Source of the DNA: a virus
Virus record (IMG/VR): IMGVR_UViG_3300022939_000017
Coordinates: 7,416-71,415 of that record
Reading direction: 5' to 3' (one strand)
Length of the DNA stretch: 64,000 nucleotides
Under the pieces are notes generated by a model. That model did no database searches. It had not been told where the DNA came from and worked only from the letters and a program-made list of their open reading frames with translations. Both the position numbers and the translations under genes were made by a program. Shown here piece by piece: positions 7,763-63,999 of this stretch. How positions within the stretch are numbered: position 1 is the first letter of the stretch; each line of letters begins with the position of its first letter.

Positions 7763-7763
7763 A

Positions 7764-9134: not shown

Positions 9135-9135
9135 A

Positions 9136-18951: not shown

Positions 18952-18965
18952 CTATACTATAAATA

Positions 18966-19859: not shown

Positions 19860-19861
19860 TT

Positions 19862-39960: not shown

Positions 39961-40452
39961 TTAGAATTCTAAAATTGCGTAATCATAAGAAAGTGTTAGA
40001 GTGATTTCTGCTGGGTCTGTGGCATTAGCCCAATCTAAATCGTTGAACACTGCATTGTTGATGAAAGCACCTTTTAGAGTCCATTGTTCAATTTTATCAC
40101 CAACAGGTCCTAACATATAACATTGAATATCTTTTTTATAGAAATCTGCATATCCATCTCTACCAGTTAGAGATTCGTGAGATAATCTAACCCATTCCAT
40201 CACTGCTTGAGCACCACTTGGAACGATTGGGTCATAAAGACTGATTTCAACATCTTGCCATTCACCCTTACCTTTAAGTTTTCTCTTAACGTTGATATGG
40301 TCAAGTGTTACAGTTTCAAACTGAATTGAAGGTCTGTTAGCTGTTTTAATAAGATATGAAGGAATACCATCGATTTCCATGATGAATCTATTCTTCATCT
40401 TTGGTTCGAAATTGGTATAGAACATATCGTTAAATTCTAATACTTCTGCCAT
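39961..40452 (-). CDS. Tail tube protein (gp19-like)
   Basis: FEPKMKNRF, W..V.ISLYDP, YKKDI, EQWTLKGAF, LSYDYA; downstream of the sheath. Confidence 0.88.
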   Translation of the reverse strand: MAEVLEFNDMFYTNFEPKMKNRFIMEIDGIPSYLIKTANRPSIQFETVTLDHINVKRKLKGKGEWQDVEISLYDPIVPSGAQAVMEWVRLSHESLTGRDGYADFYKKDIQCYMLGPVGDKIEQWTLKGAFINNAVFNDLDWANATDPAEITLTLSYDYAILEF

Positions 40453-40510
40453 TTTTTATTTCTCCTATTTTGTACTATTATAAATATAGTTCTTTTTTAT
40501 TTTTATTTAA

Positions 40511-42883
40511 TTATGCCGAGAACGAAGCTCCTGTTGGTAGAATGTTGAAATCTAACACGATGAATTCAGCAGTTTTCGTTGGTTGTAAGAAAATCTGTCC
40601 AGCCAAGATGTTTCTATCGATTACATCAGGTGTGTTATTAGTTTCATCCATTACTACTCTAAAAGCATAAAGTCCTTGTCTTTGTTGTATTCCTTCTAAA
40701 TAAGGGTTAACAGTATTCAAGAATCTACTTCTTGTTTGAGAAGTATTTTGTTCGAATACTAAGTATCTTGAAGTTGAAGCAATATACTTCTTAACTTTAA
40801 TCATTAATCTTCTAACATTGATTCTATCAAGTGCGGATGCCTTATCTTGTAAAGTTTTTTGTCCAAAAGCAACGATACCTTCTCCAGGGAACGAAGCGAT
40901 TGGGTTAACTTTTCCTTCATATAGTGTATCTCTTTCAGCATGTGTTAATCTGTTTAATACAGATACCGCACCTACGATACCACCTCTATTTAAACCAGCG
41001 GGTGCGAACCATTCAGCAGCAACAGCATCGTTAGCAGCATATATTCCAGGCATCAATACTGATGGTGGAACTGCAGTTAATCTGTTAGTTCTTGAATCGA
41101 TTGTTTTAACCCATGGGTAGTAAGTTCCAACATAGTTAGAATCTAAGTTACCAGCCTGTTCAACAGCCTGTGAAATAGTATCTGTTGAAACTTGTCCATT
41201 TGCAGAGTTGTAAGTTACACCAACTACATCACCGATGAAGAAAGCATCTTCTCTAGCCTCTACCATATCAACAATCTTATCAAATACATAAGAGTGGTGT
41301 CTACGAACAATACCAGGTGCAGTTACTAAGTTGATATCGAAATCATCTGGGTTAGATACTGCGTTGATTGCTCTTACATAAGCAACTGAACCAACTGCTG
41401 TTGAAGTTGATAAATCAAATCCTTGTGAGTTACCACTACCAAAGTTAGCAGATGAACCAGCAAGTGCCTTTTCAGTAGTTGGTGATTCACCATCAAATCC
41501 TTCTTGGAATCCAACTACGAATTGTCTTTTATTAACATCAGTTGCATTTGAACCTGTTAATTCAAATCCGAATGAGTATGTTCCATTATTGATAGATACT
41601 GTTCCATCAAATGCAAACACATCATTTGAACCATATCCTGCAGATACAGGTATTGGTGATAAGAAATGTCCATTATCAACTTTTACTAATGTTGATTCTA
41701 AATCAATACCACTATACTTAACACCACTTGATGAAGTGTTATCAGCAGAACCAGTTGAGAATACAACCGATGGAGTTATTGAATCTGAACCTGAGATTGG
41801 TGATAGATACTTAGCATGTCCAAATGGTCCTGCCACGATTGGGAACGAACCTTCTGGTTTACATTCTACTCTAATGTGTTTAGAACGATTTGTATAATCA
41901 CCATTTTCTGTTTGTTTTCCATTTGCATCGATAACAAGATTTCTATCACCGATTACTTTTTTAATGTAGTTTGGAGATGCAGGGTCTAAGTTCAAGTTAT
42001 TGAATGTTTCTAAGATTACTGGTCTCTTATCTGTATCAGAGTATCCTCTAACTGCGATTGAGAAAGTTGAGTAATCAGTAGAATTATTTGAACCTGCCGC
42101 CTTTACATTAAATAATGAAATTTTATATTCTTTATTATAGTTTGAACCATCACCTAAAGTATGGAATCTAAATAAATCATGTCTTTCACCTGAAATCAAC
42201 TGAGATTTAATCCAAGGAGTTGATGCGTGTTGAATATCGTTTGTGAAAACTTGGTTTCCTAAATCCACTAATACTACTTGTGAACCACTTGAAGTGATGT
42301 TACCAGATTCGTTAGTTGCTGCATTTTCAAAGTACTTGTATGCATATGCACCTTTAGAACCTCTTGGAGATTCTCCAAATACATCTGATAAATCATTTCC
42401 TGCAGTTGGAAGTACAGATGCTGATACTGATGTATTGTAAGCTGAATCTGAACCACTTAGTTCAATTGAAAAAGCTGATTGAGATATTTGTGAATCAATA
42501 GATGCTGTTACACCGGTTGCACTATCCCATAAGTGAGTGGTATTTAAAACTCCTACTAACTTCTCTCCTCCATTAGAACCACTAACAACAATTGCTGCCG
42601 GTCCAACTTCAGTATATCCACCAGTATTACCAACTCTTACGATAGTAACAGTTCCTGCTTCTCTTAAATAATTTTGTACGGTATATCCTGTATAGTAAGT
42701 TCCATCAGGTGTACCGAATATTTCTTCAAATTCTGATTGTGTATTGACAACGGTTGGTACGAATGCAGGTCCTTTATGGAAAGGTCCAATTACGGCTGCT
42801 CCGATTTCTCCAATCCCTTGTGCTAAGAAAGAAAGGTCATTTTCTCTCGTAAATACACCAGGTGATACAATTTTTTCTGCCAT
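40511..42883 (-). CDS. Tail sheath protein (gp18-like)
   Basis: VSPGVFTREND, YYPWV, WFAPAGLNRG, GQKTLQ...DRINVRRL, FLQPTKTAEFI. Confidence 0.95.
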   Translation of the reverse strand: MAEKIVSPGVFTRENDLSFLAQGIGEIGAAVIGPFHKGPAFVPTVVNTQSEFEEIFGTPDGTYYTGYTVQNYLREAGTVTIVRVGNTGGYTEVGPAAIVVSGSNGGEKLVGVLNTTHLWDSATGVTASIDSQISQSAFSIELSGSDSAYNTSVSASVLPTAGNDLSDVFGESPRGSKGAYAYKYFENAATNESGNITSSGSQVVLVDLGNQVFTNDIQHASTPWIKSQLISGERHDLFRFHTLGDGSNYNKEYKISLFNVKAAGSNNSTDYSTFSIAVRGYSDTDKRPVILETFNNLNLDPASPNYIKKVIGDRNLVIDANGKQTENGDYTNRSKHIRVECKPEGSFPIVAGPFGHAKYLSPISGSDSITPSVVFSTGSADNTSSSGVKYSGIDLESTLVKVDNGHFLSPIPVSAGYGSNDVFAFDGTVSINNGTYSFGFELTGSNATDVNKRQFVVGFQEGFDGESPTTEKALAGSSANFGSGNSQGFDLSTSTAVGSVAYVRAINAVSNPDDFDINLVTAPGIVRRHHSYVFDKIVDMVEAREDAFFIGDVVGVTYNSANGQVSTDTISQAVEQAGNLDSNYVGTYYPWVKTIDSRTNRLTAVPPSVLMPGIYAANDAVAAEWFAPAGLNRGGIVGAVSVLNRLTHAERDTLYEGKVNPIASFPGEGIVAFGQKTLQDKASALDRINVRRLMIKVKKYIASTSRYLVFEQNTSQTRSRFLNTVNPYLEGIQQRQGLYAFRVVMDETNNTPDVIDRNILAGQIFLQPTKTAEFIVLDFNILPTGASFSA

Positions 42884-42963
42884 TTTATATTACTCCTTGT
42901 TAATTATCTTGTGTAAATGTACACATATAAATATAAAATACTTTTTCTAAAGTATTATTTTAT

Positions 42964-43275
42964 TTAATTAGTAACCGATTCTTCTACCGATTCTTCAGAT
43001 TTTTCAGATTTTTCAGTAGGAGTGAATGTATTTGTAGCTGGGTCATAATTTCCATCACCATATTTTTCATTCAATCCTTTGAATAATTCTTCTTCTGTTT
43101 GTTGTAACTCTTTGTGTTTGTTTAGAAGTTGTTCTTTAAACCCATCAAGTTCACTAATTCTTCTTTCTTTTTCAATTTGAAGTTGTCCTAATTGTGTAAA
43201 CACATTTGAAACATCTTGTCTTAATTGATTAATCTGTGAAACTTCTTCTTCTGTAAACTGAATTGTGTTTGCCAT
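42964..43275 (-). CDS. Coiled-coil hypothetical protein (possible fibre chaperone)
   Basis: Heptad-rich sequence ending LNEKYGDGNYDP. Confidence 0.65.
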   Translation of the reverse strand: MANTIQFTEEEVSQINQLRQDVSNVFTQLGQLQIEKERRISELDGFKEQLLNKHKELQQTEEELFKGLNEKYGDGNYDPATNTFTPTEKSEKSEESVEESVTN

Positions 43276-43345
43276 TTTGATATATTTTATTTAATGTTTT
43301 GTTTATATATATAAATATATGATTTTTTCTCAAACATAAAAAATA

Positions 43346-44647
43346 TTATGCCGTAAATGAGAATGATGCCCATGAAGATTTTAATCCATGGTCAATCGCT
43401 CTTACTCTAAAATAATATGTAGTACCTGGTGATAATGAATATCCAACTAATACTTCAACCGAAGTTGAACTCCACTCTGAAACATCTGCAATAAGTGAAC
43501 CAAAGTTAGAATCGTTATCAATTTGGAAATCATAACCTGTAATACCAGTATCACCTGTTGATGATGGAGCTGTCCATGATACAGATGGTGATGAATATGA
43601 TAATCCAGTAGGTGCTGATGATGCTCCTAAATCAGTATGAGAACCACTTGTACCTTTATTATGTGAAATATATCCATTAACTAAATAAGTATCTTGTTCT
43701 TCAACATCAATTGATACAATCTCTGTTGTTTCATTTACAGCAACTTTAGATATTACCTCTACTTCTTCGATACCACTTGTTCCTTGTTTAATAAGTTTAT
43801 CACCTTCTTCTATTGTAATAATTTCTTTAAATTTATAATCACCACTTATAACATCTTTTACTAAAAATGGATGTTCACCAGTTGCAGTGATTTCACCATC
43901 ATTAATATTATAGTATCTTTGAGCAAAAGAATAAATAACACTAACTACTGTAACTTCTTTTGGTGTTGCATCAAGCGTTTCAGCATTCCATTCTAAGAAA
44001 TCTCCATCAGAATCAGATGATAATCCTGCTAATGCATATCCATCTAAAATATCTCCTTCTTCTAATTCACCCGCCTCTACAATTGTTCCATCTGCTTTTA
44101 ATATTGGTGAATCTGAAGTTAAACATAATGCAGTGTTTCCATCATATGTATCAATTGAATATACTGCCTTTGTTCTTGGAACATTATATCCATTACCACT
44201 TCCAATATGGTCGTTATATCCATCAGCAAAAGTAGCAGATATGGTATGTGATTGTGCAGATAATAATGATGTTTGAGAACTTGGAGATTGTGGGTTCATA
44301 GCTCCTGCTGATAATGTAGCTCTAAATGTAGGTGTTCCACTTACAGAAATGTAACTACCACCAGTTACTCCCCATGTAAAATTACCCGAAGAGCCGGATA
44401 TTATTCCAAAGTTTGTTCCAGGACTTGTAAAAGTCATATCATATGTATCTGAAGTAGATTCTACTAAATAGGTATATCCAGTTACTGAATCTACTGAATC
44501 TACTGCGAATGTTGATAATCCAATATCATCACCAGCAGATGGTGAACCTTTAATTGTTCCCAATGATACATTAGCTCCTTGAGTATTTCCAGTTGCTCCT
44601 GCTAAATTATTTAAACTAAGTGTATCTCCAGATGTAAGTGTTGGCAT
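43346..44647 (-). CDS. Virion protein with Hint (intein-like) autoprocessing domain and C-terminal FN3
   Basis: CLTSDSPI...ATGEHPF...YLVNGYISHN/K, then WTAPS...GY...LSPGTTYYFRVRA. Confidence 0.85.
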   Translation of the reverse strand: MPTLTSGDTLSLNNLAGATGNTQGANVSLGTIKGSPSAGDDIGLSTFAVDSVDSVTGYTYLVESTSDTYDMTFTSPGTNFGIISGSSGNFTWGVTGGSYISVSGTPTFRATLSAGAMNPQSPSSQTSLLSAQSHTISATFADGYNDHIGSGNGYNVPRTKAVYSIDTYDGNTALCLTSDSPILKADGTIVEAGELEEGDILDGYALAGLSSDSDGDFLEWNAETLDATPKEVTVVSVIYSFAQRYYNINDGEITATGEHPFLVKDVISGDYKFKEIITIEEGDKLIKQGTSGIEEVEVISKVAVNETTEIVSIDVEEQDTYLVNGYISHNKGTSGSHTDLGASSAPTGLSYSSPSVSWTAPSSTGDTGITGYDFQIDNDSNFGSLIADVSEWSSTSVEVLVGYSLSPGTTYYFRVRAIDHGLKSSWASFSFTA

Positions 44648-44648
44648 A

Positions 44649-45653
44649 TTATTCTCCTAAACTATTATAAATATGTAATAATGAATCAATCCAATAATCT
44701 TTATCAGAAAATTCATCAATCATATATTCTTTTATGTGTAAAAACCATTTATTTTTTTCTTCATAAGAAGAGTTTACTATCTTAATATAAATATCATCAA
44801 ATTCTTTTTTAGTCGAAGCTCTATAAGGATACTTCAATTCTCTACACCATTCTTTATGAATAATAGGTAATTTACCCCTATCAACTGCTTCAAATATACC
44901 ATATCCAAAAGGTTCTACCGAAAAACATGAATGAGATATTCCCCAATCCATATTATAAAATATATCTTTAAATTCAGAATCATAATGATATATTTTTGAT
45001 TTACTAACATCTACCTTTACTCCATTTTTCCAAATAATTTTAAATTCAGATGAATTTGTAAAAATAAAAGATTCTTTTCTGTCTAAATAATGTGGATTTT
45101 TTCTACCTTCGCATCTTGAAGCAAATCCTAATTTAGTTGATTTACTTAAAAGTTTGTTGTGTTTAAACTCATAGAAATTTTTAATGTTTATATTATCATA
45201 TGGTATTTTATATAATCCAATCCATATATTTGTTTTGGCCCAATCTGATACTTGTTGTTCCCAACTTGAATCAATAAAAGGATGCCAACCTAATGAAGCA
45301 TCTGTAAATGTTTGTGATTTTAAAACATGGTCTACCGAATTATGTAATACATTTGAATGAATTTTATCTTTATTATCTTCTATACATCTCATTGGAGTAT
45401 AATGTCCATGTAATATATTGATTCTTCTTGCACCCCTACATAGTTCTTCAAACTTTTCTATATTTTCACCATGCCAATATGTTTCAATTGGAAATTGATA
45501 ATCTTCATGACCTTTGGGTTTGTTTCTATGAATTAAAAGAATTGGTTTTACATCTAATTTAGGTGCAACTAACTTCATCCATAGATTTACCCAAGTATCA
45601 GTTCCGGCGTTTACCCATGGGCCTCCACCAGTTGTGTAATAAACATCGTACAT
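44649..45653 (-). CDS. GT-B fold glycosyltransferase (GT4-like)
   Basis: GGG...AG loop, SRCEGRKN, EPFGYGIFEAVDRGKLPI (ExFGxxxxEA). Confidence 0.8.
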   Translation of the reverse strand: MYDVYYTTGGGPWVNAGTDTWVNLWMKLVAPKLDVKPILLIHRNKPKGHEDYQFPIETYWHGENIEKFEELCRGARRINILHGHYTPMRCIEDNKDKIHSNVLHNSVDHVLKSQTFTDASLGWHPFIDSSWEQQVSDWAKTNIWIGLYKIPYDNINIKNFYEFKHNKLLSKSTKLGFASRCEGRKNPHYLDRKESFIFTNSSEFKIIWKNGVKVDVSKSKIYHYDSEFKDIFYNMDWGISHSCFSVEPFGYGIFEAVDRGKLPIIHKEWCRELKYPYRASTKKEFDDIYIKIVNSSYEEKNKWFLHIKEYMIDEFSDKDYWIDSLLHIYNSLGE

Positions 45654-46426
45654 TAACCTCTATTAAATTTTAATTGAAATACTTTATGATTTTGGTCTAA
45701 TTCTGCAGTTGATAGTGCTTTGTTATAAAGTAATAAACCACCAAATCTCCAAGTTCCACCTCTATCTCCACCACCACTACCTGTTGAAGTAGAACCTATC
45801 GTATTATATGAGAATACTGAATTAGTTGCCATTGCATAAGATGAACCTACATTTGAACCATTTATATAATTTTGTGCATTACCACCACTCCATACAACAG
45901 TCCAATTGTTCCAACCACCAAATATTAAACTTTCACCATTTGCAAAGTAATCATGGTTTCCATCAACTCCACCATTAGTTTCTGCTTCAGTAATGTAAGA
46001 AGTAGCTGAATTGTTTTTTACTGCCCAATAGTTTGTGTATTTTCCACCAAAAAGTGCATGAGATGATGAATATTGACCAGTTGAATCGTAATCTGACCAA
46101 AACCAAACTGACATTGTACTGTTGTTACTATCTGTATCTAATGAAATTGTAGAACTTAATGCTATTCTTTTAAGATTTGCACCATCATCTGTTTCAATTT
46201 GAATATATGGATGTTTATTTGCTGGTGTTTGTACCATTGATGAGTTATCCAAAGTACCATTAACTCCATTAGATGAAATACTTGGAGCCATATTAGTAAG
46301 TGTTGTACCACTTACATATGAATTTCGATTACCAACATCATAATATAATTGTAAAGAATCAAGTGTGATTGATGGATTTATTTTTGTACTATGGTGTATT
46401 GTACTACCTTTTACTGTTACTGACAT
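45653..46426 (-). CDS. LamG/concanavalin-like virion protein
   Basis: LQLYYDVGN..SY, TMSVW, WNNWTVVW, YING, YNKALSTAE. Confidence 0.75.
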   Translation of the reverse strand: MSVTVKGSTIHHSTKINPSITLDSLQLYYDVGNRNSYVSGTTLTNMAPSISSNGVNGTLDNSSMVQTPANKHPYIQIETDDGANLKRIALSSTISLDTDSNNSTMSVWFWSDYDSTGQYSSSHALFGGKYTNYWAVKNNSATSYITEAETNGGVDGNHDYFANGESLIFGGWNNWTVVWSGGNAQNYINGSNVGSSYAMATNSVFSYNTIGSTSTGSGGGDRGGTWRFGGLLLYNKALSTAELDQNHKVFQLKFNRG

Positions 46427-46428
46427 TT

Positions 46429-47922
46429 CTATACCTTTATAACGATAACACCAGAAAAATTAGATGTAAATTCTAATTCAACAACATTTGAATTTACCGA
46501 AGTTATGTTTTCTGGTATTACCTGCTCTTTACTTGAGTTATATACCTGAACTATTGGGTACTCTTCGTTCAAACTATGAGTAATTATGTGTTTTGATGCA
46601 GATGAAACTGTTTCTTTATAAAAAGTTGATTCTGATTTTGCATCACCTGATGTTGAATCTTCAAACTTTACTTTATTATTATCATCAAGTTTTAGTTTTA
46701 CTTTATTATCACCTTCTCCTATTTCAAGTTCTTTAATTTTAAGTGTTTTAAGTGCATCGGTTTGGGAATCTTTAAATTCTACATTTCCATCGGTATCTCT
46801 CTGTAATAATGTTCCACCTAAATCAATAGTAGAACCACTTAAATATAAATCCCTCCATCTAAATGTAGATGAACCTAAATCATAGGTTACATTTTGTGAT
46901 GGAACAAGGTGAGTTGATGCAGTAATAGCATTGTTAACTTGAAATATTGGTACACCAGATATATCGTTAACAGTAAATACATTACCAGTATTATCGTCAT
47001 CTACTGATAGTAATTCACCATTTGAACCTGATACTGTAAATACAGTATTTCCGTTATTATTATGAGTAATTACTGTTTCTGATGTAACAGATGTGATGGG
47101 TGAATTTACAATTGTATGTGTGTCACTAAATACAGATAAACTTCCACTTGTACCACTACCACTTACAGTTACTGCAGAAGCAGTGAATGTATTTAATGAT
47201 TCATTTGATACTGATGTATTTGCTAATTGTAATGAACTACTTATAATTCCACTTGGAATGTTTTGTAGGTCATTATAATCAGTAGATAGTCCAGCAAAAT
47301 CAGAAGCAACAGATTGAGAAAATTCAGTAAATGTTTCGTTTGATGATGAAAGTATTCCACTTGGAATGTTTGTAAAATTATCATAATCTAAATAATATGA
47401 AGCAGGTTGTCCATTTAAGTTTGAGGCATCATCCGCAGAACCACTAACAACATGACCACCTTTTGCAACCACAACAAATCCACTTTGAGCAGATGATAAA
47501 ACTACTTGTACGGTATCTTGGTCTGTTAAAGATACAGTTTGTGGTATAATTTGGTTATCATTGTTATCATATACAGATACAATTACATTTTTAGAATTGA
47601 AGTTGTGTCCAACATTTATTGTAGATGAATTATCAAAAGAAGATGTTACAGTTGCAACTTCTCCGATATCTGTACTAATGTTTGTTAATCCACTACCATC
47701 ACCAAAGAAATATGATGCAGTTACATTACCATTAACATTTATTGAACCTGTGGTTTGGGAATTTGTAGTAACAACTTGTTCTATGGAAGGTGTACCGGAA
47801 TCCTTTTCGAAGAATATTCGACCATCATAGGTATTAATAGCTAATTCTCCGAGTTCTAAATTACTCGTAGAAGGAACTTTACCAGATACTGCTGTTCTTT
47901 TTAGTTTTACTACTTGTGCCAT
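46429..47922 (-). CDS. Tail fibre-like protein with Mtd_N-like anchor
   Basis: KLKRTAVSGKVP...GELAINTYDG; two H.L/FN...VQVY beta modules; YDLGSSTFRWRDLY. Confidence 0.7.
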   Translation of the reverse strand: MAQVVKLKRTAVSGKVPSTSNLELGELAINTYDGRIFFEKDSGTPSIEQVVTTNSQTTGSINVNGNVTASYFFGDGSGLTNISTDIGEVATVTSSFDNSSTINVGHNFNSKNVIVSVYDNNDNQIIPQTVSLTDQDTVQVVLSSAQSGFVVVAKGGHVVSGSADDASNLNGQPASYYLDYDNFTNIPSGILSSSNETFTEFSQSVASDFAGLSTDYNDLQNIPSGIISSSLQLANTSVSNESLNTFTASAVTVSGSGTSGSLSVFSDTHTIVNSPITSVTSETVITHNNNGNTVFTVSGSNGELLSVDDDNTGNVFTVNDISGVPIFQVNNAITASTHLVPSQNVTYDLGSSTFRWRDLYLSGSTIDLGGTLLQRDTDGNVEFKDSQTDALKTLKIKELEIGEGDNKVKLKLDDNNKVKFEDSTSGDAKSESTFYKETVSSASKHIITHSLNEEYPIVQVYNSSKEQVIPENITSVNSNVVELEFTSNFSGVIVIKV

Positions 47923-47967
47923 ATGTATGACTTACCGTTTTCAAATTATATAATTATTAAAAATAAG

Positions 47968-47990
47968 AAAATCCCTTATATAAGGGAATT
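47968..47990 (-). terminator. Probable terminator hairpin
   Basis: TCCCTTA-ta-TAAGGGA followed by a T-rich run on the minus strand. Confidence 0.6.
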
Positions 47991-47997
47991 AACTTTC

Positions 47998-50826: not shown

Positions 50827-50866
50827 TTTTTATTCTCTTCCTTTTATATTATAAATATATATTTTT

Positions 50867-51502
50867 TTAAATAGAACCACCATCAACTGAACTTATCACG
50901 GTTGCATCAGCAGTACCAGTAACATCACCTGCCATTGTGATTTGATTAGAACTACTAAATACTCCTAAATTATTAATTTCTGTTGTAACTGCCGTATCCA
51001 AACCATCAATGTTATCTGATGAGATAGAACCACTAACTATATGACCACCTTTTGCAACTACAACATATCCGCTTTCAGCACTTGAGAATGTTACTGTGAT
51101 TGTATTGTTATCAGTAACTCTTAAAGTCTGTGGAATAATTTGATAGTTTGCATTATCATATACTTGAGCAATTGGATTTGGTGTATTTAAGTTGTGATTT
51201 ACAACCCATGTTGATGAATTTGTAAATGAACGTTGGACGGTTGCAGATTGGTCAACGGTAATATTCGTTAGTTGAGAACCATCTCCTACAAAGTAAGATG
51301 CAGTTACAGAACCACTAATTTCAACTGAGCCGGTATAAACATTTCCAACTAATTCTTGTACAGTATCACCCTGTGAACCACTTCTTCTTAGAAATACTTT
51401 ACCATCATCAACGTTTATTGCTAATTCGCCAATCGATAAATCACTTGTGGTTGGTTTGGAACCAGGAGTGGTGCTTCTTTTAAGTTTGATAATTTGAGCC
51501 AT
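50867..51502 (-). CDS. Short fibre-like protein with Mtd_N-like anchor
   Basis: Paralogous to the N-terminal part of 46429-47922 (GELAIN.DDG, VVAKGGH.VSGS); ends DGGSI. Confidence 0.7.
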   Translation of the reverse strand: MAQIIKLKRSTTPGSKPTTSDLSIGELAINVDDGKVFLRRSGSQGDTVQELVGNVYTGSVEISGSVTASYFVGDGSQLTNITVDQSATVQRSFTNSSTWVVNHNLNTPNPIAQVYDNANYQIIPQTLRVTDNNTITVTFSSAESGYVVVAKGGHIVSGSISSDNIDGLDTAVTTEINNLGVFSSSNQITMAGDVTGTADATVISSVDGGSI

Positions 51503-51508
51503 ATTTAT

Positions 51509-55825: not shown

Positions 55826-55928
55826 TTAATTCTGCTTCCTAATTTATTACATATAAATATAAAATATGAGAATTTGTTGTTCACTAAACACTCTATCACT
55901 TATATAAGTATAAGAAAGTTAAAAGTAT

Positions 55929-55961
55929 AAAAAAAATCCCCAACCTTTCGGAAGGGGATTT
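55929..55961 (-). terminator. Rho-independent terminator
   Basis: AAATCCCC...GGGGATTT stem followed by a T-run on the minus strand. Confidence 0.75.
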
Positions 55962-55984
55962 CTTAATTTATAAGTAAATTCTTA

Positions 55985-58900
55985 TTAGAATGTACCTCCA
56001 TCAATTTCGTTACTTGCAACGAATGATGAACCATTCCATTGAATTACATCTCCAGCGTTTGAAGGAGTAACTGCCTCAAGTGATTTATTTGAATCGAAAT
56101 AAACGAATGAGTTAGCAGATGCCGCATTGATTCTCAACTCAGCAGTTCCACTAATTGTTACATTTGTTCCATCATCAGTAATCAATGAGTCAACTAATAA
56201 TCCATTAGAATCAGCCTTAAGTACTGTATTAGAAGTTGGAGAAGAATCTAATCTCGCAAATTCTTTTTCAGAACCAAGAGGTCCACCTTTCCAATAGTCA
56301 TTAGTACCATCCCATAGTAATGAACCACTAACTGTGTTTCCACCAGTAGAATCAGTAACTTGTAAACCAGCAGTAGATTGAGCACCACCGATGTTAAGTT
56401 CTAAGATGTTATCACCAATTTGAACAGTAGTTGAGTCGATTGTAGTAGTTGTTCCTAATACTGAAAGGTTTCCAGTAACAGTTACATTACCAGTAACACC
56501 TAAATCATTAGTAACTGTCAAATCATTTCCGATTGTTACATCATTTGGTAAACCAACAGTTACAGTTCCACCACTACCTAAAGTTACTGAACCACCACTA
56601 ACTTCAATTTCGTTAGAAGTACCTTGAACTGTTAATGAAGTGTTACCTTCAACAGAAGTTCCTGCAGTTGAACCATAATCAACTTCTACTGAGTTATCAA
56701 CACCATTAAGTGAGATACCTGTACCAGCAACATCAGCATTAAGTGCGGAAGCGGGAACTCCACCTGATTTGATTGATACATTTCCACTTGTTACACCAAA
56801 GTTAGTTGATGAGAATGAAGCGATACCTTTTTGTGAAGTTGAACCATCTTGTACTGAAACAGTTACAGTATCAGTAGCAACAGTTGCGGATACTCCAGTA
56901 CCACCAGCGAATGAAAGTGCCCCATCTAATAAAGATACGGTATCATTTGAACCATCAGAACCACTAACAGTAAGTGTAGTTGATAATCCTGTAATTCCAC
57001 TACCATCTCCAAAGAATGAACCACTAAATGAACCAGTAACACTAACATCAGCAGAGTTACCAATTGTAGTTCCATCTAATTGAGATGAACCAGAAATTAC
57101 ACCATTAGTTGCGTTGATTTGACCAGTTACATTTCCTGTTACATTTCCTGTTAAATCACCATACAAGTTAGTTGCGTGTACTTCAGCAAATTTATCAGTA
57201 GATGAACCTAAATCGTAAGTGTTAGTTGCAGATGGAATAATATCTGAAGAAACTTCACCACCGAAAGAGATTGTATCAGAAGATGCATCTCCAATTGTGA
57301 TGTTACCTCCAAGAGTAATATTACCATCAATCTTAGCATTTCCAGTTAAATCAAGTGTAGAACCTGAAATACCTCCTAAGTTTACATCTTGTCCATCTAA
57401 TAAATCAACGATTTGAGTTGAACCAGAAACTAATGTATGAGAAGCAGATGCCTTTTCTTCAAAAGTTGCCGATAATGAAGCTGTATAAGTTTCAATATTA
57501 CTTAATCTTCCATCTTGAACACCTTGTTCAGTTGCAATAGAACCAGTTTCAGTTGCAAATTGGTCTAATCTTGTATCTTGTGCAGATTGTTCAGTTGCAA
57601 TTGAACCAGTTTCAGTTTCAAGTGAACTTAATCTTGCATCTTGTGCAGATTGTTCAGTTGCGATAGAACCTGTTTCAGTTGCAAATTGGTCTAATCTTGT
57701 ATCATGAGCTGAATCAGCTGATTGTAAGTTTGAAATATCAGTATCATTAGATGAAGTATAAGAGTTTAATGAATCTAAGATTCCAACTACTTGAGCTGAA
57801 CCAGAAACAACATCATCACCACCAGCTAAAAGAATTTTAATTTCTGAATCTTTAACACCAGCTTTCCAATAGTCATTTGTTGAATCCCAAACTAATGAAC
57901 CAGTATCAGTAGTAGGTGCAGTAGCATCTTTTACATAGATACCACCATTAGTAGCTCCTGTTCCATTTAATTCGATGATATTATCACCAATTTGAACAGT
58001 TGTAGAATCAACAGTTGTAGTTGTTCCTTGTACATCTAAGTTACCAACAACAGTTAAGTTGTTTCCAATTGTTACATCATTTGGTAATCCAATTTGAATT
58101 TGGTTGTCAGTTACTGCAGTTTCAATTTCGTTTGCAGTTCCAATAACAGAAAGTGAATCTGTTAATAAATCAACTTCATCATTACCAGTTGAACCACTAA
58201 TTTTTAAGTTAGTTGCTAAACCAGTTAATCCACTACCATCACCTTCGAATGAACCAGTGAAAGTTGAACCACCATCTGCATCACCAAAATTATCACCACT
58301 TACTCGGCCTGAACCGAAATCAGTAGCAACATTTAATAATTGTCCTGAACCACTAAATACATTAGTTCCACCAAATAAAGTTTCATCAGTAATTGAACTA
58401 CCTAATGATACTGAAGTACCACTAATAGTGATTGAAGAATTACTTAATGATGAATTACCAATATTTGATAGAGTGTTGTTTCCACCATCAATAGTTTTAT
58501 TAGTAAGAGTTTCAGTTGCTGAAGCATGAGAACCAGTATATGATTCTAAATTAGATAATCTGTTATCTTGTGCAGATTGTTCTGAAGCAATTGAACCAGT
58601 TTCAGTTGCAAATTGGTCTAATCTTACATCTTGTGCAGAATCTTTAGTTTCTAAAGCTCCTGTTGCAGCTGCTAATTCAGATTCAGATACGAAATCATCA
58701 TCTAAAGATGATGTAAATGATTCAATACTTGATAATCTAAGATTTTGTGCTACATCAGTAGATGCTAAAGATGAACTGAATGTAGAATATCCATCAGTAT
58801 CAGAAATTGTAATTTGTCCTGAACCACTAACTACTGTTTCAGCATCTAATTTTAATTTTACTCTTGCATCTGTATAATATAAGTTTGAACCTTCACCAAC

Positions 58901-59296
58901 ATTATCTGTGGTAAAAGAACCACTATCTGTGAAAGCTAATTGAATTTGTGAAGAACCAGATACGATTCCTGTTCCACCTGTCTGTGCCGATGCTTTTACT
59001 TCAACATTACCTGCCTTATTAAGGATGTAAAGTTTTTCTTCTGCGGTATCATAAAATGGAATACCGTCAACCGAAGTATCATAATCACCACCAGTTAAAT
59101 TAGGAACAGAAGTACCTTGAAGTACTTTGTTTGCTGGAGTTACCGTAGAACCATCTACCCCAAGAAACAATAATGAATCTCCGTTAGCAGCAGTAATGCC
59201 TGATGAACCTGTTACAACGAGTAATTCACCTGCTCTTTTGGTAGCACTAGCAACAGATTCTAACGAACCCCGTCTATGTTTTATAATTTGTGCCAT
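55985..59296 (-). CDS. Tail fibre-like protein
   Basis: IKHRRG...GEL anchor, duplicated V.GTTTT.DSTTVQIGDNI.ELN modules, 21-aa repeats, ends IDGGTF. Confidence 0.8.
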   Translation of the reverse strand: MAQIIKHRRGSLESVASATKRAGELLVVTGSSGITAANGDSLLFLGVDGSTVTPANKVLQGTSVPNLTGGDYDTSVDGIPFYDTAEEKLYILNKAGNVEVKASAQTGGTGIVSGSSQIQLAFTDSGSFTTDNVGEGSNLYYTDARVKLKLDAETVVSGSGQITISDTDGYSTFSSSLASTDVAQNLRLSSIESFTSSLDDDFVSESELAAATGALETKDSAQDVRLDQFATETGSIASEQSAQDNRLSNLESYTGSHASATETLTNKTIDGGNNTLSNIGNSSLSNSSITISGTSVSLGSSITDETLFGGTNVFSGSGQLLNVATDFGSGRVSGDNFGDADGGSTFTGSFEGDGSGLTGLATNLKISGSTGNDEVDLLTDSLSVIGTANEIETAVTDNQIQIGLPNDVTIGNNLTVVGNLDVQGTTTTVDSTTVQIGDNIIELNGTGATNGGIYVKDATAPTTDTGSLVWDSTNDYWKAGVKDSEIKILLAGGDDVVSGSAQVVGILDSLNSYTSSNDTDISNLQSADSAHDTRLDQFATETGSIATEQSAQDARLSSLETETGSIATEQSAQDTRLDQFATETGSIATEQGVQDGRLSNIETYTASLSATFEEKASASHTLVSGSTQIVDLLDGQDVNLGGISGSTLDLTGNAKIDGNITLGGNITIGDASSDTISFGGEVSSDIIPSATNTYDLGSSTDKFAEVHATNLYGDLTGNVTGNVTGQINATNGVISGSSQLDGTTIGNSADVSVTGSFSGSFFGDGSGITGLSTTLTVSGSDGSNDTVSLLDGALSFAGGTGVSATVATDTVTVSVQDGSTSQKGIASFSSTNFGVTSGNVSIKSGGVPASALNADVAGTGISLNGVDNSVEVDYGSTAGTSVEGNTSLTVQGTSNEIEVSGGSVTLGSGGTVTVGLPNDVTIGNDLTVTNDLGVTGNVTVTGNLSVLGTTTTIDSTTVQIGDNILELNIGGAQSTAGLQVTDSTGGNTVSGSLLWDGTNDYWKGGPLGSEKEFARLDSSPTSNTVLKADSNGLLVDSLITDDGTNVTISGTAELRINAASANSFVYFDSNKSLEAVTPSNAGDVIQWNGSSFVASNEIDGGTF
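57490..57720 (-). repeat. Intragenic 63-bp (21-aa) repeat QDxRLxxxxTETGSIATEQSA
   Basis: Three to four tandem copies, plus another near 58540-58640. Confidence 0.85.
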
Positions 59297-59426
59297 TATT
59301 TTTTTTTCCTTTGTTAAATATGTTTAACCGAAAACCTTTATTTTGTTCAACAGGACATTTGCCTAAATATTTTTAATAAGCACTATATAGTACTTCCAAT
59401 ATAAATATAAAAAAGTTTTAGTTTAT

Positions 59427-59945
59427 TTAAATTCCACCACCATCAATGGTAGATTTACCCACACCTTCGGTAAAATGTACCGAACCCGTATCGAGAGATA
59501 CTCCATTTGAGTTAACAATGATTCCACTTGATGCTCTTACTGAAATAGAATTAGAACCAGTAATGATACCATCACCTTGTCCTATATCTAATTGAGCTGT
59601 TCCACTAAATGCACCACCTAATAAACCACTACCAGCAATTACTGCAGTGATATCACCAGTACCAGAACCACCACTTCCTCCAAATCCACTAAATTCAGAC
59701 CACGATACTGTTGGAGTAAATGTAGAAATAAAATCTGGTTGAGTTACTGTTGCTTGATAAGTAGATTCAGCATCTTCAACCCATACAACTTGTTTATCAG
59801 AAATACGAGCAATAGGAATGTTAGCTAAATCTGTGTATTCAGCTACAGTATAAAAGGCACCTTTGATAAATTCAATATCTGCGAGGGCCGTTCCCGAACC
59901 GGATGCTGCCGAGGTTAATTCAACCTTACTACTAAATGATGGCAT
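59427..59945 (-). CDS. Small virion protein
   Basis: GDITAVIAGSGL.GG fibre motif; ends IDGGGI. Confidence 0.65.
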   Translation of the reverse strand: MPSFSSKVELTSAASGSGTALADIEFIKGAFYTVAEYTDLANIPIARISDKQVVWVEDAESTYQATVTQPDFISTFTPTVSWSEFSGFGGSGGSGTGDITAVIAGSGLLGGAFSGTAQLDIGQGDGIITGSNSISVRASSGIIVNSNGVSLDTGSVHFTEGVGKSTIDGGGI

Positions 59946-59979
59946 TTACTTTTCTCCTTTATTCTTTATTATATAAATA

Positions 59980-62900
59980 TTATGGTGCAGAACCACTCGA
60001 AGGAATTAACCTTACTTCATAAGAAGCCGCGGTGTTTACACTATTTCTACCTATTATATTCCATCTTGTATAACCATCCACTGCCGAATCTACATCGAAC
60101 ATATGGATTTGTGTTCCAGCGGCGGTGAATGATGATTCACCAGCTGCTTTTAGATATAGTACATATTCTCCATTTGTACTACCACCCAAACTATCTGTCA
60201 TAGATGTTGGAATACCATCCATATCAGACCCACTTGGGAATATTATCATAATTTGTTCAGCAGTTGAACCATTACCATTAAATGAACTTGAAATAATAGT
60301 ATCTAAGTTCGAACCACTAACTGTGTTTCTTAAAGTCATTGTTCCACCACCAACTGTGATTGATGAACTACCTAATTCACCAGTTTTAAGTTCATAAATT
60401 GGAGAAGGTCCAACACTTTGATATCCTGTAATTAAATCTGGTTCAAAAGATGTATCTTCTGATGTGATACCCATTAAACCATCATAGTTACCATCAGATA
60501 ATGTACCAGCACCAGTTCTTGTGTTTGTGTAGATATAAACTTTTCCATAATCTGCTGCTGCCGATACCACTATTGATTCATTTGTTAAGGTTACACTTTC
60601 TCCATAACTATCAGTTACAGTTATATTAATTGAATACGAACCTGCTGATAATGAACCTGTTGGTTCTATTGTGAATGGAGATGAACTACCACTAACATCA
60701 AACTTACCACCATCCGTTCCCGCGAGCGTGATTGTAAATGGTGAGTTGTTTTCTGTATCTGTTACAGTTAATGTACCAATATCAGAACCACTAATTGCCT
60801 CATCTGAATTTAATCCATTATCAGTAAAGTTTGCAGATGGAGATGAGTTACCAAATACAGTTGCAGTTACTGAACCACTACCAATATTTCCATATTGGTC
60901 ATCAAATGTTATAGTTGATGTAAATGTATCGCCACTTTGAGTTACTGAACCACTTATATCTACACCAAGAGTTAAATTACCACTTGAATCAACAACGATT
61001 GCCTCGTTTGATGAGGTAAATGATTGAACTACTGCTGTACCATAATTTGGTGAACCATATGAAACGGTTAATTGAGCAGGACTTCCTTGATTAAATCCTG
61101 TTTGGTCTCTAAATACAGAACCATTTTCTGCAGATTCTATAATATAAATTGCAGTATCTCCACTAAGTGTACCATTACCTGCTTGTATGATTGTTACAGA
61201 ACCACTATGTACTCTTGTTTCGAATCCATGTTCATCTTCGATTGAAGCTGTATAAGGATAACTACCTGCTGGTATTGAAGTTGAGTTTACTAACAACTTC
61301 ATTTGTGGTGTTGAGATACTTGGGGTAAAATAAGTTGAATTATAGTTTGTAAAACTTAAAGAACTATTTGGAATAGTATCACCTTCAGTATCAGATAAAT
61401 TTAATCTTACTATTTCCGAAGAACCAGTTGCCTGATTTGTATTTGTATTAAATGTTTGAGTAGATGAAACACTTGGTGCGTTGTTTTTAGCAACATTTAC
61501 TGTAATTGTATCACTACCCACATTTCCATATTGGTCTGTCCAACCAATTGTTGATGTAATTGTATCACCATTTACATTTCCACTACCACTAATATCAGTA
61601 CCAACTGATAATACACCCGTTGATGAGTTTATTGAAATCAATCCATTAGATGAAGTGAATGAACCAGCTGATTGTGAACCATAGTTTGGTGAGTAGGATA
61701 CAGAAACACTTCCTTGTGTACCAGTTCTACCATTCGAATTTATAACTATATTATCACCATTTGTTGCCGATTCGATTACATATAAAGTACCATTTGTTGA
61801 AAGAGTACCCGTACCTGCAGATGCTATTGTAAAACTTCTACCACTATAAGTTGTTGATTCAGAATAAGAATCAGTTACTACTACATCATAATTGTAAGTA
61901 CCAGCGGATAAATTACCATTTGCTTGAATACCAACAGATGATGATGCAACATTCGTATAAACTAATTGCAAATCACTTGCATTAGTTCCACTCAATGAAA
62001 CAGAATAAGGTGTATCTCCTTCAGTATCAGTAATACTCATACTTACCATTGTTGTACCATCTGTTGCTAAGTTTGTGTTAAAGTTAGAACTTTGATTTGT
62101 AAATGTAGCAGTTGGTGCAGAGTTTGCAACAATAGTTACACTCAAGTTATCAGTAGTTGTTGTACCAAATGAGTTTGTAAATGTAATTGTTGAATCTAAA
62201 GTATCACCACTTTGAGTTACAGAACCACTTAAATCAACATCTAATGATAAATTACCATTTGAGTTAATTGATATTGCAGAATTAGATGAACCCCAAGTAC
62301 CACTTTGGTTTGAATTATAATCTGCTTGAGTAGAACCATAGTTTGTTGTTTTTATAGTTGTACCAGTAACTTCAGATTCTTTGATATAAGGTCCTGCTGA
62401 CCAGTTATCTGAAAGAGTTGCTGGTGTATCATCTGTAATTGGTATGGTTACAATCGCAGGTGATGATTTTTCGTTATATGAATCTTTAACCGAAACAGTA
62501 TATTGATATTCGTTTATTAAATCAGAATTTAAGTAAACTCCTGTCTTACGAGTCACTTGACCAGATGAATCCATTTGGAATGGATTTTCGTGTGGGTCTG
62601 TTAATTGTGAAGTTCCACCATAAGAACCACTTGGAACATCTACATTATCTAATTCTAACTTGTATAAAGTAAAATCTACAAAAGTTATTGTATCACCTTC
62701 ACTATCAGAGGCTGCAATTGTATCAACTGTTGCTCCATTTGATGAATTTTCATTTATTGAACTTAGTGTTTGATTATTTACAACAGGTACAACATTATCA
62801 GTTACATTTATTGTAATTGGTAATGTAGTTATTGAATCACTATCCTGTCCTGCTTCATAATGTTCATCTGATGCAGATATACTAAATGTATATTGTGTTT

Positions 62901-63999
62901 GGTTTTCATAATTTAGAGAACCTGTATTTTGTATAATCTGAACATTTGTTGAATTTTTAACAATAGTAAATTCATCCCTATCAATTGAAGATGAATAAAT
63001 TGTAATTGTATCAGATTCTGCATCTGTAAAGTAAATTGTACCAACAACAGTAGAATTTGGTGAACTTTCATTTAAATTTGCAGTAAATGAAGTAATTACA
63101 CTACCACCAACTGAAGTTTGTCTAAATTTAGGTGCTTCGTTTGGTGTAACGATTACATAAATATCTTTTTCAGTTACAGTACCAAAAGTATCTGTTGCTG
63201 TTACAGTAACTTGGTGTCCATGTGAACCACCAACCGAATCTGTATTGAATGATGATGATTCCGCAAGTGCATTTAATTTTAACACTCCACTTTCTACTCT
63301 AACTAAATCATCTGTATATGATGATGCAGTTCCAAATGTAATTGCTTGTCCTTCAGGGTCAGTTCCACTTAAAGTTACAATACTTGAACCACTTGAAACA
63401 TACTCTGAAATCGTTTGGTTACCAGTTGAAATACTTGGACCTGTATTTGGATAGAATACTGCGTTTAAGAAATCTTGTATTGAACCACTTGTACCAGGAT
63501 TTACTGAGTTGGTGAACAAATCTCCTAAATCTTCATTTGATATTACTCTATTTCCATCATATGTTGTATCTGCAGAACCACCACTACCACTTAAAGCATA
63601 TCTTGTATCAAAAGAGGAAGTTAATTGAGATGAACCACTTATAGTTCCACTTGGTACAACTCCACTTGAACCACTTAAAGCATATCTTGTATCATATGAA
63701 GAAGTTAATTGAGAACTTCCACTTACTAAATCACTTGGTAATGATGTTAAATAAGATGAGGTCTGTGCAGATAAGCCATCTACTTCAGTTTGTATAGATG
63801 AACTAAACTCATTAAGTGATGTTAATACAGTATGAGAATCATACGAACCTGTATTTGATTCAATTTGTCCAACTCGTTGTTCTAATGAAGAAGTTGTTGA
63901 TTCTAAATTAGAAATCTTAATATCATTTGATGCAGTATAAGCATTTAATGAATCAATTACAGTATGTGATGAACTGATAAATCCTAAATCGGTAATTTG
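59980..63999 (-). CDS. Giant adhesin-like virion protein with cadherin-like repeats (5' end outside window)
   Basis: The frame stays open upstream of the track start (63519) to the window edge. Repeated N.AP...E...D.EGD Ca-binding motifs and LNYE. Confidence 0.8.
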   Translation of the reverse strand, partial: QITDLGFISSSHTVIDSLNAYTASNDIKISNLESTTSSLEQRVGQIESNTGSYDSHTVLTSLNEFSSSIQTEVDGLSAQTSSYLTSLPSDLVSGSSQLTSSYDTRYALSGSSGVVPSGTISGSSQLTSSFDTRYALSGSGGSADTTYDGNRVISNEDLGDLFTNSVNPGTSGSIQDFLNAVFYPNTGPSISTGNQTISEYVSSGSSIVTLSGTDPEGQAITFGTASSYTDDLVRVESGVLKLNALAESSSFNTDSVGGSHGHQVTVTATDTFGTVTEKDIYVIVTPNEAPKFRQTSVGGSVITSFTANLNESSPNSTVVGTIYFTDAESDTITIYSSSIDRDEFTIVKNSTNVQIIQNTGSLNYENQTQYTFSISASDEHYEAGQDSDSITTLPITINVTDNVVPVVNNQTLSSINENSSNGATVDTIAASDSEGDTITFVDFTLYKLELDNVDVPSGSYGGTSQLTDPHENPFQMDSSGQVTRKTGVYLNSDLINEYQYTVSVKDSYNEKSSPAIVTIPITDDTPATLSDNWSAGPYIKESEVTGTTIKTTNYGSTQADYNSNQSGTWGSSNSAISINSNGNLSLDVDLSGSVTQSGDTLDSTITFTNSFGTTTTDNLSVTIVANSAPTATFTNQSSNFNTNLATDGTTMVSMSITDTEGDTPYSVSLSGTNASDLQLVYTNVASSSVGIQANGNLSAGTYNYDVVVTDSYSESTTYSGRSFTIASAGTGTLSTNGTLYVIESATNGDNIVINSNGRTGTQGSVSVSYSPNYGSQSAGSFTSSNGLISINSSTGVLSVGTDISGSGNVNGDTITSTIGWTDQYGNVGSDTITVNVAKNNAPSVSSTQTFNTNTNQATGSSEIVRLNLSDTEGDTIPNSSLSFTNYNSTYFTPSISTPQMKLLVNSTSIPAGSYPYTASIEDEHGFETRVHSGSVTIIQAGNGTLSGDTAIYIIESAENGSVFRDQTGFNQGSPAQLTVSYGSPNYGTAVVQSFTSSNEAIVVDSSGNLTLGVDISGSVTQSGDTFTSTITFDDQYGNIGSGSVTATVFGNSSPSANFTDNGLNSDEAISGSDIGTLTVTDTENNSPFTITLAGTDGGKFDVSGSSSPFTIEPTGSLSAGSYSINITVTDSYGESVTLTNESIVVSAAADYGKVYIYTNTRTGAGTLSDGNYDGLMGITSEDTSFEPDLITGYQSVGPSPIYELKTGELGSSSITVGGGTMTLRNTVSGSNLDTIISSSFNGNGSTAEQIMIIFPSGSDMDGIPTSMTDSLGGSTNGEYVLYLKAAGESSFTAAGTQIHMFDVDSAVDGYTRWNIIGRNSVNTAASYEVRLIPSSGSAP

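Follow-up and report, generated by a model that had tools for sequence, protein, structure and literature searches.

In the 64-kb stretch of viral DNA analysed here (the window; positions 7,416 to 71,415 of IMG/VR record IMGVR_UViG_3300022939_000017), the run of tail genes at 40511-63999 holds two real features side by side, an excess of a short serine-containing motif in its fibre and sheath proteins and a glycosyltransferase (GT) gene at 44649-45653, and a coupling between the two is unsupported by co-occurrence. Our best overall explanation, to which we give a probability of roughly 0.4, is that a GT made late in infection would glycosylate a putative virion acceptor encoded in its own operon, as part of a larger phage machinery. 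The window is part of one 71.4-kb viral contig with an estimated completeness of ~35% (CheckV); it is AT-rich (G+C ~32%), its real genes are all on the minus strand, and they encode replication enzymes, a baseplate/tape-measure block, the tail tube, the tail sheath and a run of tail fibres. The nearest named phages are remote, with a sheath identity of 46% for Microcystis phage Mel-JY01 and 43% for LR756508 (uncultured, 484 kb), and the sheath of the Flavobacterium 'immuto' phages is 52% identical to that of the window across half of the protein. Many near relatives are present in metagenomes, and one of them, G001, is a complete genome of 288.7 kb that is syntenic with the window.

The motif was tested against 1000 composition-preserving shuffles of each protein, and in a second test by shuffling inside blocks of 20 or 40 residues. 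In whole-protein shuffles [ST][GAS]S exceeded what composition predicts in six of the twelve open reading frames (ORFs) of 40511-63999 and was marginal in one more. The features are given below, with the observed versus expected counts of [ST][GAS]S.

59980-63999, minus strand: giant fibre or adhesin-like protein with cadherin-like modules (Cadherin PF00028, E 9e-12), its 5' end beyond the window; 39 versus 22.2, enriched.
59427-59945, minus strand: Gly/Ser-rich protein of 172 amino acids (aa); 3 versus 2.3, not enriched.
55985-59296, minus strand: fibre protein of 1103 aa with coiled-coil 'RLxxLE-x-TGS' repeats; 26 versus 14.0, p=0.002.
51509-55825, minus strand: tail fibre of 1438 aa with a C-terminal S74 intramolecular chaperone domain and many G-x-[VI][VI]-SGS-x-Q-[VI] modules; 54 versus 16.7, the top enrichment.
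50867-51502, minus strand: fibre-like protein of 211 aa; 6 versus 1.9, p=0.017.
47998-50826, minus strand: tail fibre of 942 aa with an S74 chaperone domain; 16 versus 10.7, p=0.076, marginal.
46429-47922, minus strand: fibre-like protein of 497 aa, upstream neighbour of the GT in most loci (64 of 80); 13 versus 4.7, enriched.
45653-46426, minus strand: Laminin_G_3 (ConA-like) protein of 257 aa, its stop overlapping the GT start (TAATG); 2 versus 2.6, not enriched.
44649-45653, minus strand: orphan GT-B (GT4-like) glycosyltransferase of 334 aa, so named from its predicted fold (predicted local distance difference test score, pLDDT, 92.4; Z 23.9); not enriched.
43346-44647, minus strand: putative virion protein of 433 aa with an N-domain, a HINT domain and an fn3 domain, the downstream neighbour of the GT; 2 versus 5.0, depleted.
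42964-43275, minus strand: conserved small ORF of 103 aa between the HINT-fn3 gene and the sheath gene; not enriched.
40511-42883, minus strand: tail sheath of 790 aa; 11 versus 3.9, p=0.002, all sites at residues 101-445.
39961-40452, minus strand: tail tube (gp19-like); motif absent, expected only 0.12.
18227-20149, minus strand: variable fibre-like cassette of three ORFs within the replication region, referred to below as the separate cassette.

Under block shuffling the fibre signals persisted (51509-55825: z ~10) and that of the sheath fell to p=0.03-0.05. The sheath sites fall after the conserved N-terminal piece and before the C-terminal sheath domains, as defined by Pfam; the first-pass annotation, made from the letters alone, had placed motifs in the variable middle of the sheath, and this was borne out. 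Its cadherin-like, coiled-coil and S74-fibre labels also agree with the family matches. Its broader statement, that [S/T]-[G/A/S]-S is pervasive in the structural proteins, stood for the six enriched ORFs and failed for the five without enrichment and for SAS and SSS, which are ordinary. The separate cassette had been called motif-rich as well, and two of its ORFs are (18227-18748, 4 versus 1.3; 19862-20149, 5 versus 1.3), the third not (18966-19859, 1 versus 1.9). The scarcity noted in the replication enzymes and the tube reflects composition only, since the pooled non-structural ORFs carry 14 motifs versus 17.3 expected, and the expectation for the tube is itself close to zero. The excess is order-specific when sequences of the same composition are compared: SGS occurs 71 times versus 13 for SSG and 34 for GSS, and TGS 32 times versus 9-21 for its permutations. 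SAS is not distinctive (14, permutations 10 and 10), and neither SAS nor SSS was found in excess. In the proteins of 40511-63999 there are 99 [ST]GS sites versus 27.9 expected, and a hydrophobic residue stands directly before 59 of them versus a background of 28%. The sharpened signal is hydrophobic-[ST]-G-S, not SAS/SSS.

The motif had been described as occurring in unrelated folds. In fact many sites belong to a small set of modules repeated inside fibre genes and shared among them, namely G-x-[VI][VI]-SGS-x-Q-[VI], the coiled-coil 'RLxxLE-x-TGS', 'TGSFSGSFxGDGSxLT', 'KLITxASGS' and a turn of the cadherin module, and to this extent the description has to be narrowed. When sites sharing at least 7 of 16 flanking residues were collapsed, 65 clusters (55 of them singletons) were left from the 99 sites, and random positions gave 97 clusters from 99. 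Because 65 clusters persist, duplication accounts for about one third of the excess, and internal repeats as its whole cause were ruled out, the flank-distinct clusters still exceeding the 27.9 sites expected. A DNA-level origin was also ruled out. Glycine is encoded by GGT at 91 of 96 sites and the first serine mostly by AGT, with AGTGGTTCA and AGTGGTTCT making up 36 of the 96; GGA-TCN is never used (0 of 190 in the window) because GATC is absent, and AGT encodes serine in 72% of Ser-Gly pairs, inside the motif and outside alike. The codon bias is thus explained by GATC avoidance and a general preference for AGT before glycine, and the motif excess acts at the protein level. The avoidance itself is wider: at window positions 1-64000, GATC occurs 0 times versus 271 expected from trinucleotides, CTAG 9 versus 115.5, ACGT 12 versus 48.7, GCGC 0 versus 9.3 and CATG 101 versus 208, which is strong restriction-site avoidance that shapes codon pairs.

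The motif is a lineage-specific signature of the fibre modules and the variable sheath middle in one clade of aquatic myoviruses. Fifteen T4 structural proteins showed no excess ([ST]GS 6 versus 10.2, [ST][GAS]S 27 versus 27.8), and no enrichment was seen in the sheaths of Atu_ph07, SP-15, Melnitz-3, Mosig, MED4-213, S-H38 and LR756508 (1 versus 1.5); these T4 proteins and seven sheaths rule out a generic trait of myovirus fibres or sheaths. Across 77 orthologues of the window sheath, by comparison, the average was 9.2 versus 3.6. Enriched sheaths were found in G001 (12 versus 3.6), G003 (13 versus 3.3) and two further relatives (G002 and G004), and also in the more distant Mel-JY01 (11 versus ~3.0) and immuto (10 versus ~3.9). 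In G001, 11 of 325 ORFs are enriched and form two blocks and one outlier. The outlier occupies the position of the separate cassette of the window, where G001 encodes a fibre-like protein of 342 aa with 12 [ST]GS sites and an N-terminus matching that of the window protein. Immuto carries the same fibre modules as the window, and some sheath sites stand at equal positions in Mel-JY01. No S74-type fibres were found in Mel-JY01, immuto or LR756508, and a tblastn search of phages with the SGS-repeat part of fibre 51509-55825 gave no match, which is uninformative because the low-complexity filter was on. In PDB sequence searches with the fibre modules the S74 chaperone domain was the sole match, no solved structure covering the modules, and an AlphaFold-type model of the sheath from 21 close orthologues was too poor for placing the motifs (mean pLDDT 33.2, predicted template-modelling score, pTM, 0.25).

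The second feature is known by its fold. ORF 44649-45653 had no sequence match in Pfam, PHROG, NCBIfam or PDB by sequence or profile searches, and none of 22 family members matched PF00534 (Glycos_transf_1) at E<=1; one homologue, P0175, is fused to an extra C-terminal GT2 domain, and only that domain matches GT2 models. The family comprises at least 500 proteins at E<=0.001 in a word-index search, those among the matches listed being all unnamed or 'hypothetical protein', and 155 representative clusters in an exhaustive search. An AlphaFold (AF2) model built from 22 diverse members (pLDDT as listed, pTM 0.90) had 213 PDB matches at E<=0.001 in Foldseek, headed by GT4 enzymes with probability 1.00 and template-modelling scores of 0.63-0.67. 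By VIA its neighbours were sucrose-phosphate synthase (Z 23.9; 318 of 334 residues aligned, root-mean-square deviation 3.7), BshA (21.4) and PimA (20.8), followed by the T4 DNA alpha-glycosyltransferase AGT (19.1; Foldseek E 2e-6), GtfA (18.8), SdgB (17.2) and T4 BGT (16.5). Because T4 AGT, GtfA and SdgB score close together, the fold cannot name the acceptor. Enzymes of the GT4 type carry a Gly-rich N-terminal loop, R-x4-K and E-x7-E as donor-binding and catalytic motifs. In the family of the window enzyme G17, E182, R184, K185, H241, E247 and PFGY are invariant and R180 is kept in at least 90%, so that the loop, the pair R180-x4-K185 and, in the E-x7-E helix, the first Glu appear to be retained, which fits an active enzyme. 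We are confident from the model that the ORF encodes a GT4-like GT-B glycosyltransferase of an orphan, phage-only family; the name given in the first-pass annotation therefore holds by fold (model, Foldseek and VIA) and finds no sequence family behind it. Ten separate stretches of P0217, a metagenomic protein of 2761 aa, matched GT residues 71-141 (E 1.4e-11); judging from the alignment, this giant protein repeats part of the N-domain of the GT.

The GT gene was said to sit inside a structural operon, and this is correct. Its junctions with the adjoining genes are overlapping or 1-nt ones with no terminator-like site between, from which it follows that it belongs to the late tail operon; promoter-like sites at 40400-51600 were at chance level (53 versus 58.8). 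In 79 of 80 related loci the order is fibres, GT, HINT-fn3 gene, small ORF, sheath and tube, and the HINT-fn3 gene follows the GT in 79 of 80 and 15 of 15 loci. The Laminin_G_3 gene, in contrast to the usual upstream fibre gene, is the GT neighbour in 1 of the 80 loci only and has no G001 homologue, so it looks like a recent insertion in the operon. The constant partner, 43346-44647, shows the HINT hallmarks Cys175, a TxxH block and a terminal HN330 followed by Lys. Among 18 aligned sequences the Cys is kept in 17, the Thr/Ser in 18, the His in 17, the terminal HN in 18 and the +1 Lys in 18, and the match to Pfam Intein_splicing reached 18.5 bits, under the cut-off of 35.8. From these residues the protein looks like a putative self-cleaving virion protein rather than a splicing intein. 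In LR756508 the GT homologue (37% identical) lies 77 kb from the sheath and again adjoins a protein with a terminal HINT domain, and a DXD-type GT and a ParB-like/cytidylyltransferase fusion come after it.

The gene arrangement suggests how the enzyme may work. It would be made late, from the fibre-to-sheath operon, and would transfer a sugar from a nucleotide-sugar onto a virion protein of the same operon, the best candidate acceptors being the constant HINT-fn3 neighbour or the adjoining fibres. It would also be one arm of a larger machinery, made up of a multi-GT island headed by a paralogue, often beside a giant fibre, and of a conserved pair of GT4-type genes. The paralogue was found by scanning with distant family members, and it lies on the same large contigs. 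Downstream of it in 62 loci we found Methyltransf_24 (59 loci), GT2-like enzymes (58), fusions of a beta-4-galactosyltransferase-like GT7 enzyme to LamG domains (54) and radical-SAM proteins (37); some loci add epimerase/dehydratase, UDP-glucose dehydrogenase and cytidylyltransferase (CTP_transf_like) genes, or a cytidylyl/adenylyltransferase matching the heptose-1-phosphate adenylyltransferase PHROG. HINT-terminated proteins stand upstream of the island-type paralogue in 6 of the 62 loci, and the Laminin_G_3 domain of the window is marginally similar (E 0.003) to the LamG domains of the GT7 fusions. A fibre of at least 700 aa, typically with 10-29 [ST]GS sites, lies within three ORFs upstream in 38 of the 53 island loci that have at least 6 kb of upstream DNA. 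A Ser/Thr/Gly-rich BACON-domain protein of 717 aa (L113 5597-7750, and its homologues) is placed between the giant fibre and the island-type GT, and it has zero [ST]GS sites. In G001 both members of the GT family are within two genes of a motif-enriched protein (permutation p 0.004) and 9 of the 11 enriched proteins are within ten genes of a family member (permutation p 0.003), with the caveat that the enriched genes are themselves clustered. Taken as a whole, it is likely that the phages of this clade have a glycosylation machinery tied to their tail genes. The GT7-LamG and GT2-like island enzymes had no match in Mel-JY01, immuto, LR756508 or T4 in a single-sequence search that had no positive control.

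The GT4 pair consists of adjacent genes for proteins of 463 and 420 aa at 219.1-222.0 kb of G001, with GT2 and GT8-like genes after them; the contig of the window, which is about 35% complete, does not carry it. The pair had strong homologues in Mel-JY01 and immuto (for the second member, E ~1e-109 and 44-46% identity in searches of whole records), and the second member is also found in G003 (62% identical). This second member was absent from LR756508 and T4, and no other record in a collection of 50,697 phages matched it at E<=1e-10.

Several results weigh against the preferred reading, in which the enzyme 44649-45653 modifies a virion protein of its operon, or against tying it to the motif. 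The HINT-fn3 protein, although rich in Ser/Thr/Gly and the constant partner of the GT, is depleted of the motif (in 79 orthologues the ratio is 0.19). The second Glu of E-x7-E (E255 in the window GT) is Gln in most homologues, and the GT homologue of LR756508 lies among genes for primase, SbcC and the ParB-like/cytidylyltransferase fusion. No fibre is found upstream in 15 of the 53 island loci. In the sheath, motif residues had an identity of 0.63 among 21 orthologues, compared with 0.68 for their neighbours and 0.66 for other S/T/G, and individual sites are lost in GT-bearing orthologues: with 6 to 13 sites in each sheath, SAS154 is retained in 21 of 21, TGS377 in 20 of 21 and SGS364 in 4 of 21, and no site-specific selection was seen in this set. 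Motif and gene also fail to go together. By tblastn and by profile search of the whole record the GT family was absent from Mel-JY01 and immuto, both of which have the motif, and LR756508 has the gene and lacks the motif, so that motif and family are discordant in 3 of 12 phages (Fisher p 0.24).

The first-pass annotation had proposed that [S/T]-[G/A/S]-S on exposed virion proteins is an O-glycosylation sequon read by this GT, and that the virion is thereby coated with glycans. The real motif excess in fibres and sheath, the GT-B fold, the shared operon and the two G001 paralogues adjoining motif-rich proteins argue for it, as does the structural nearness of the GT4-type enzymes GtfA and SdgB, which O-glycosylate serine repeats. 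The coupling of motif and GT that it requires is contradicted by the three discordant phages, and the ordinary frequency of SAS and SSS, the lack of extra conservation of the sites and the depletion in the constant neighbour count against it too. We regard it as very improbable, and it is no less unlikely that 44649-45653 reads the narrower [ST]GS. Glycosylation as such is not refuted by Mel-JY01 and immuto because both encode other GTs. That virion proteins are the target of the predicted machinery of this clade is plausible, if somewhat short of an even chance, and [ST]GS is a candidate sugar-attachment site only tentatively. If it is one, it is tracked not by 44649-45653 but by the GT4 pair, which lies outside the window. 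The second member of the pair was present with an enriched sheath in 4 of 4 carriers (G001, G003, Mel-JY01 and immuto), and none of the 8 non-carriers (LR756508, T4, Atu_ph07, SP-15, Melnitz-3, Mosig, MED4-213 and S-H38) has such a sheath (Fisher p 0.002).

It may accordingly be asked whether the motif is the sequon of the GT4 pair, the fibre-adjacent GT-B genes and the multi-GT island extending or diversifying the glycan. This would account for a protein-level motif that spans several fold types and for the match between carriers and enriched sheaths. The match is confounded by kinship, as the four carriers are the closest mutual relatives and share a homologous sheath insertion domain, so it may reflect a single evolutionary event. 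Both members match the Pfam family 'GT4-conflict', named for conflict systems (26.2 bits with a cut-off of 26 for the 463-aa protein, and 17.3, below the cut-off, for the 420-aa protein), and their neighbourhood is one of DNA metabolism, beside a PD-(D/E)XK nuclease and a radical-SAM/SPASM gene. Together with the missing site-specific conservation and the absence of the pair from the incomplete contig of the window, these points make the proposal rather unlikely. Its fuller form is a sugar-coated tail, in which soluble phage GT4 enzymes would O-glycosylate serine or threonine at hydrophobic-[ST]-G-S strand-end turns of the fibres and the outer domain of the sheath, the pair would initiate, the orphan GT-Bs and a fast-changing island of several GTs, methyltransferases and radical-SAM proteins would diversify the glycans, and the HINT protein would be a self-cleaving acceptor or carrier; this is slightly less likely still.

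The motif could instead have a structural role only: in this clade it would form strand ends or tight turns in fibre, beta-solenoid and Ig-like modules and would have spread as modules were duplicated and exchanged. The GT would act on an acceptor outside the virion, for instance a glycan of the host envelope, a lipid or a small molecule. The hydrophobic residue before most sites and the recurrence of sites in few modules and periodic solenoid-like arrays are what such an element would show, the same modules exist in immuto without the GT family, and several sheath sites are positionally kept in Mel-JY01; the enzymes closest to the GT in structure produce sugars, glycolipids and small-molecule glycosides. 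Against this stand the 65 independent clusters and an excess that reaches unrelated architectures, coiled-coil linkers and the sheath insertion among them. T4 proteins and seven other sheaths fold without the motif, and fibre genes are physically linked to both GT paralogues and to the island. We consider this explanation improbable.

DNA is another conceivable acceptor: the GT-B family would modify a hydroxymethyl-pyrimidine or similar base, and the motif would be an unrelated structural signature. Some results favour this over the reading that we prefer. The nearest named Atlas neighbours of the GT, compared by language-model features, are PF11440 AGT clusters (5 of 30 hits, score 0.97), T4 AGT is close in structure, and clusters of GT-B with cytidylyltransferase are known to glycosylate DNA, according to Pyle et al. 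CTP_transf_like genes occur in the island, the LR756508 context includes the ParB-like/CTP-transferase fusion, primase and SbcC, and in G001 a divergent ThyS-like gene adjoins one for an amidotransferase. However, none of the 22 family members matched Pfam AGT (PF11440) at E<=1. Neither ThyS nor 5mYOX was found on the 71-kb contig, itself 35% complete, and its methylases are of the N6/N4 type; a Tet_JBP search gave no match, which is uninformative because the control genomes were silent too. The strong ThyS of G001 is an ordinary thymidylate synthase (ThyA), and the window lacks the divergent ThyS-like gene at the corresponding syntenic position. The GT gene lies inside a late tail operon, the GT7-LamG fusions and the BACON protein of the island point to protein or glycan acceptors, and total GATC avoidance suggests DNA exposed to restriction and not globally shielded. 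We consider a role in DNA modification quite unlikely.

GtfA from pneumococcus (PDB 4pqg) and SdgB from S. aureus (PDB 7ec1), both with the GT-B fold, lie close to the window enzyme in structure (Z 18.8 and 17.2). Both work in the cytoplasm and modify numerous serines within short motifs that recur. Their identity to the window GT is ~10%, however, and higher scores (Z 20-24) go to enzymes that make sugars, glycolipids or glycosides of small molecules; the GtfA and SdgB substrates are disordered serine-rich repeats, whereas the sites here are hydrophobic-[ST]-G-S in folded fibre modules. In the mycobacteriophages Che8 and Rita, according to two papers (PMC11256854 and PMC12582341) that cite Freeman et al. 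(2023, Cell Host Microbe), phage GTs are likewise proposed to decorate their own virion with a glycan shield, and the glycans were shown chemically on the major capsid proteins of these siphoviruses. The system of the window differs in belonging to an aquatic myovirus, in having tail fibres or sheath with a short internal motif as candidates and in a GT unrelated by sequence. The bacterial autotransporter heptosyltransferases TibC/AAH are, according to Yao et al. (2014, eLife, PMC4358343), soluble enzymes that hyperglycosylate a repetitive adhesin. Here the likeness is a fibre-like repetitive target and, in some island loci, the match to the heptose-1-phosphate adenylyltransferase PHROG; TibC assembles as a dodecamer and contains an iron-finger motif and a beta-barrel, and it does not appear in the list of structural neighbours for the window GT. 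Pyle et al. (bioRxiv 10.1101/2023.12.21.572611) report metavirome GT-B and cytidylyltransferase enzymes that put heptose on 5-hydroxymethylcytosine, with some clusters near structural genes. The window enzyme resembles phage DNA GTs in its GT-B fold (T4 AGT Z 19.1, BGT Z 16.5), in its nearest Atlas clusters and in the cytidylyltransferase and ParB-like genes that accompany some relatives, and it differs in having no PF11440 match, no hydroxymethylase or 5mYOX on its contig, and a place in a late tail operon paired with a HINT protein. Among the top-ranked literature matches listed there was no report of glycosylated tail fibres or sheaths of aquatic phages or of an SGS sequon.

Other parts of the window and of G001 deserve mention on their own account. 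A PhyH-family 2-oxoglutarate/Fe(II) dioxygenase (28995-29747, minus strand, E 1.5e-19) lies within the baseplate block, is 62% identical to its G001 counterpart and could be a protein hydroxylase. A tandem pair of N6/N4-type DNA methyltransferases with large insertions in the catalytic domains (6233-9155, minus strand) has no G001 counterparts. Two ORFs of 400 and 448 aa at 21513-24058 (minus strand) have no family match and no G001 homologue, and with the drop in G+C to 23% at 22-24 kb this segment resembles an insertion that is foreign or evolves fast. G001 carries an extra cassette (201784-206054), flanked by the homologues of window ORFs 615-1865 and 1-597, of ABC-ATPase-like, divergent ThyS-like, asparagine-synthase-type amidotransferase and pyridoxal-phosphate (PLP)-enzyme-like genes, which the window lacks; from its gene content it is a possible candidate for a base-hypermodification pathway.

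Whatever the acceptor is, more than 500 proteins of an orphan GT-B family now have a predicted fold, the GT gene and its HINT-protein neighbour are defined as a gene pair, and the motif is recognised as lineage-specific and not generic. The tail machinery of abundant aquatic myoviruses is not, to our knowledge, among the established cases of virion glycosylation, which are a few mycobacteriophages and algal viruses. The question could be tested directly in two cultured relatives, Flavobacterium phage immuto and Microcystis phage Mel-JY01. If fibres and sheath indeed bear the phage's own glycans at a short motif, hundreds of metagenomic 'hypothetical proteins' would gain a function, a compact pair of one sequon and its enzyme would be at hand for glyco-engineering, and adsorption, host range, the stickiness and decay of particles in water and their recognition by grazers or immune systems would have to be rethought.

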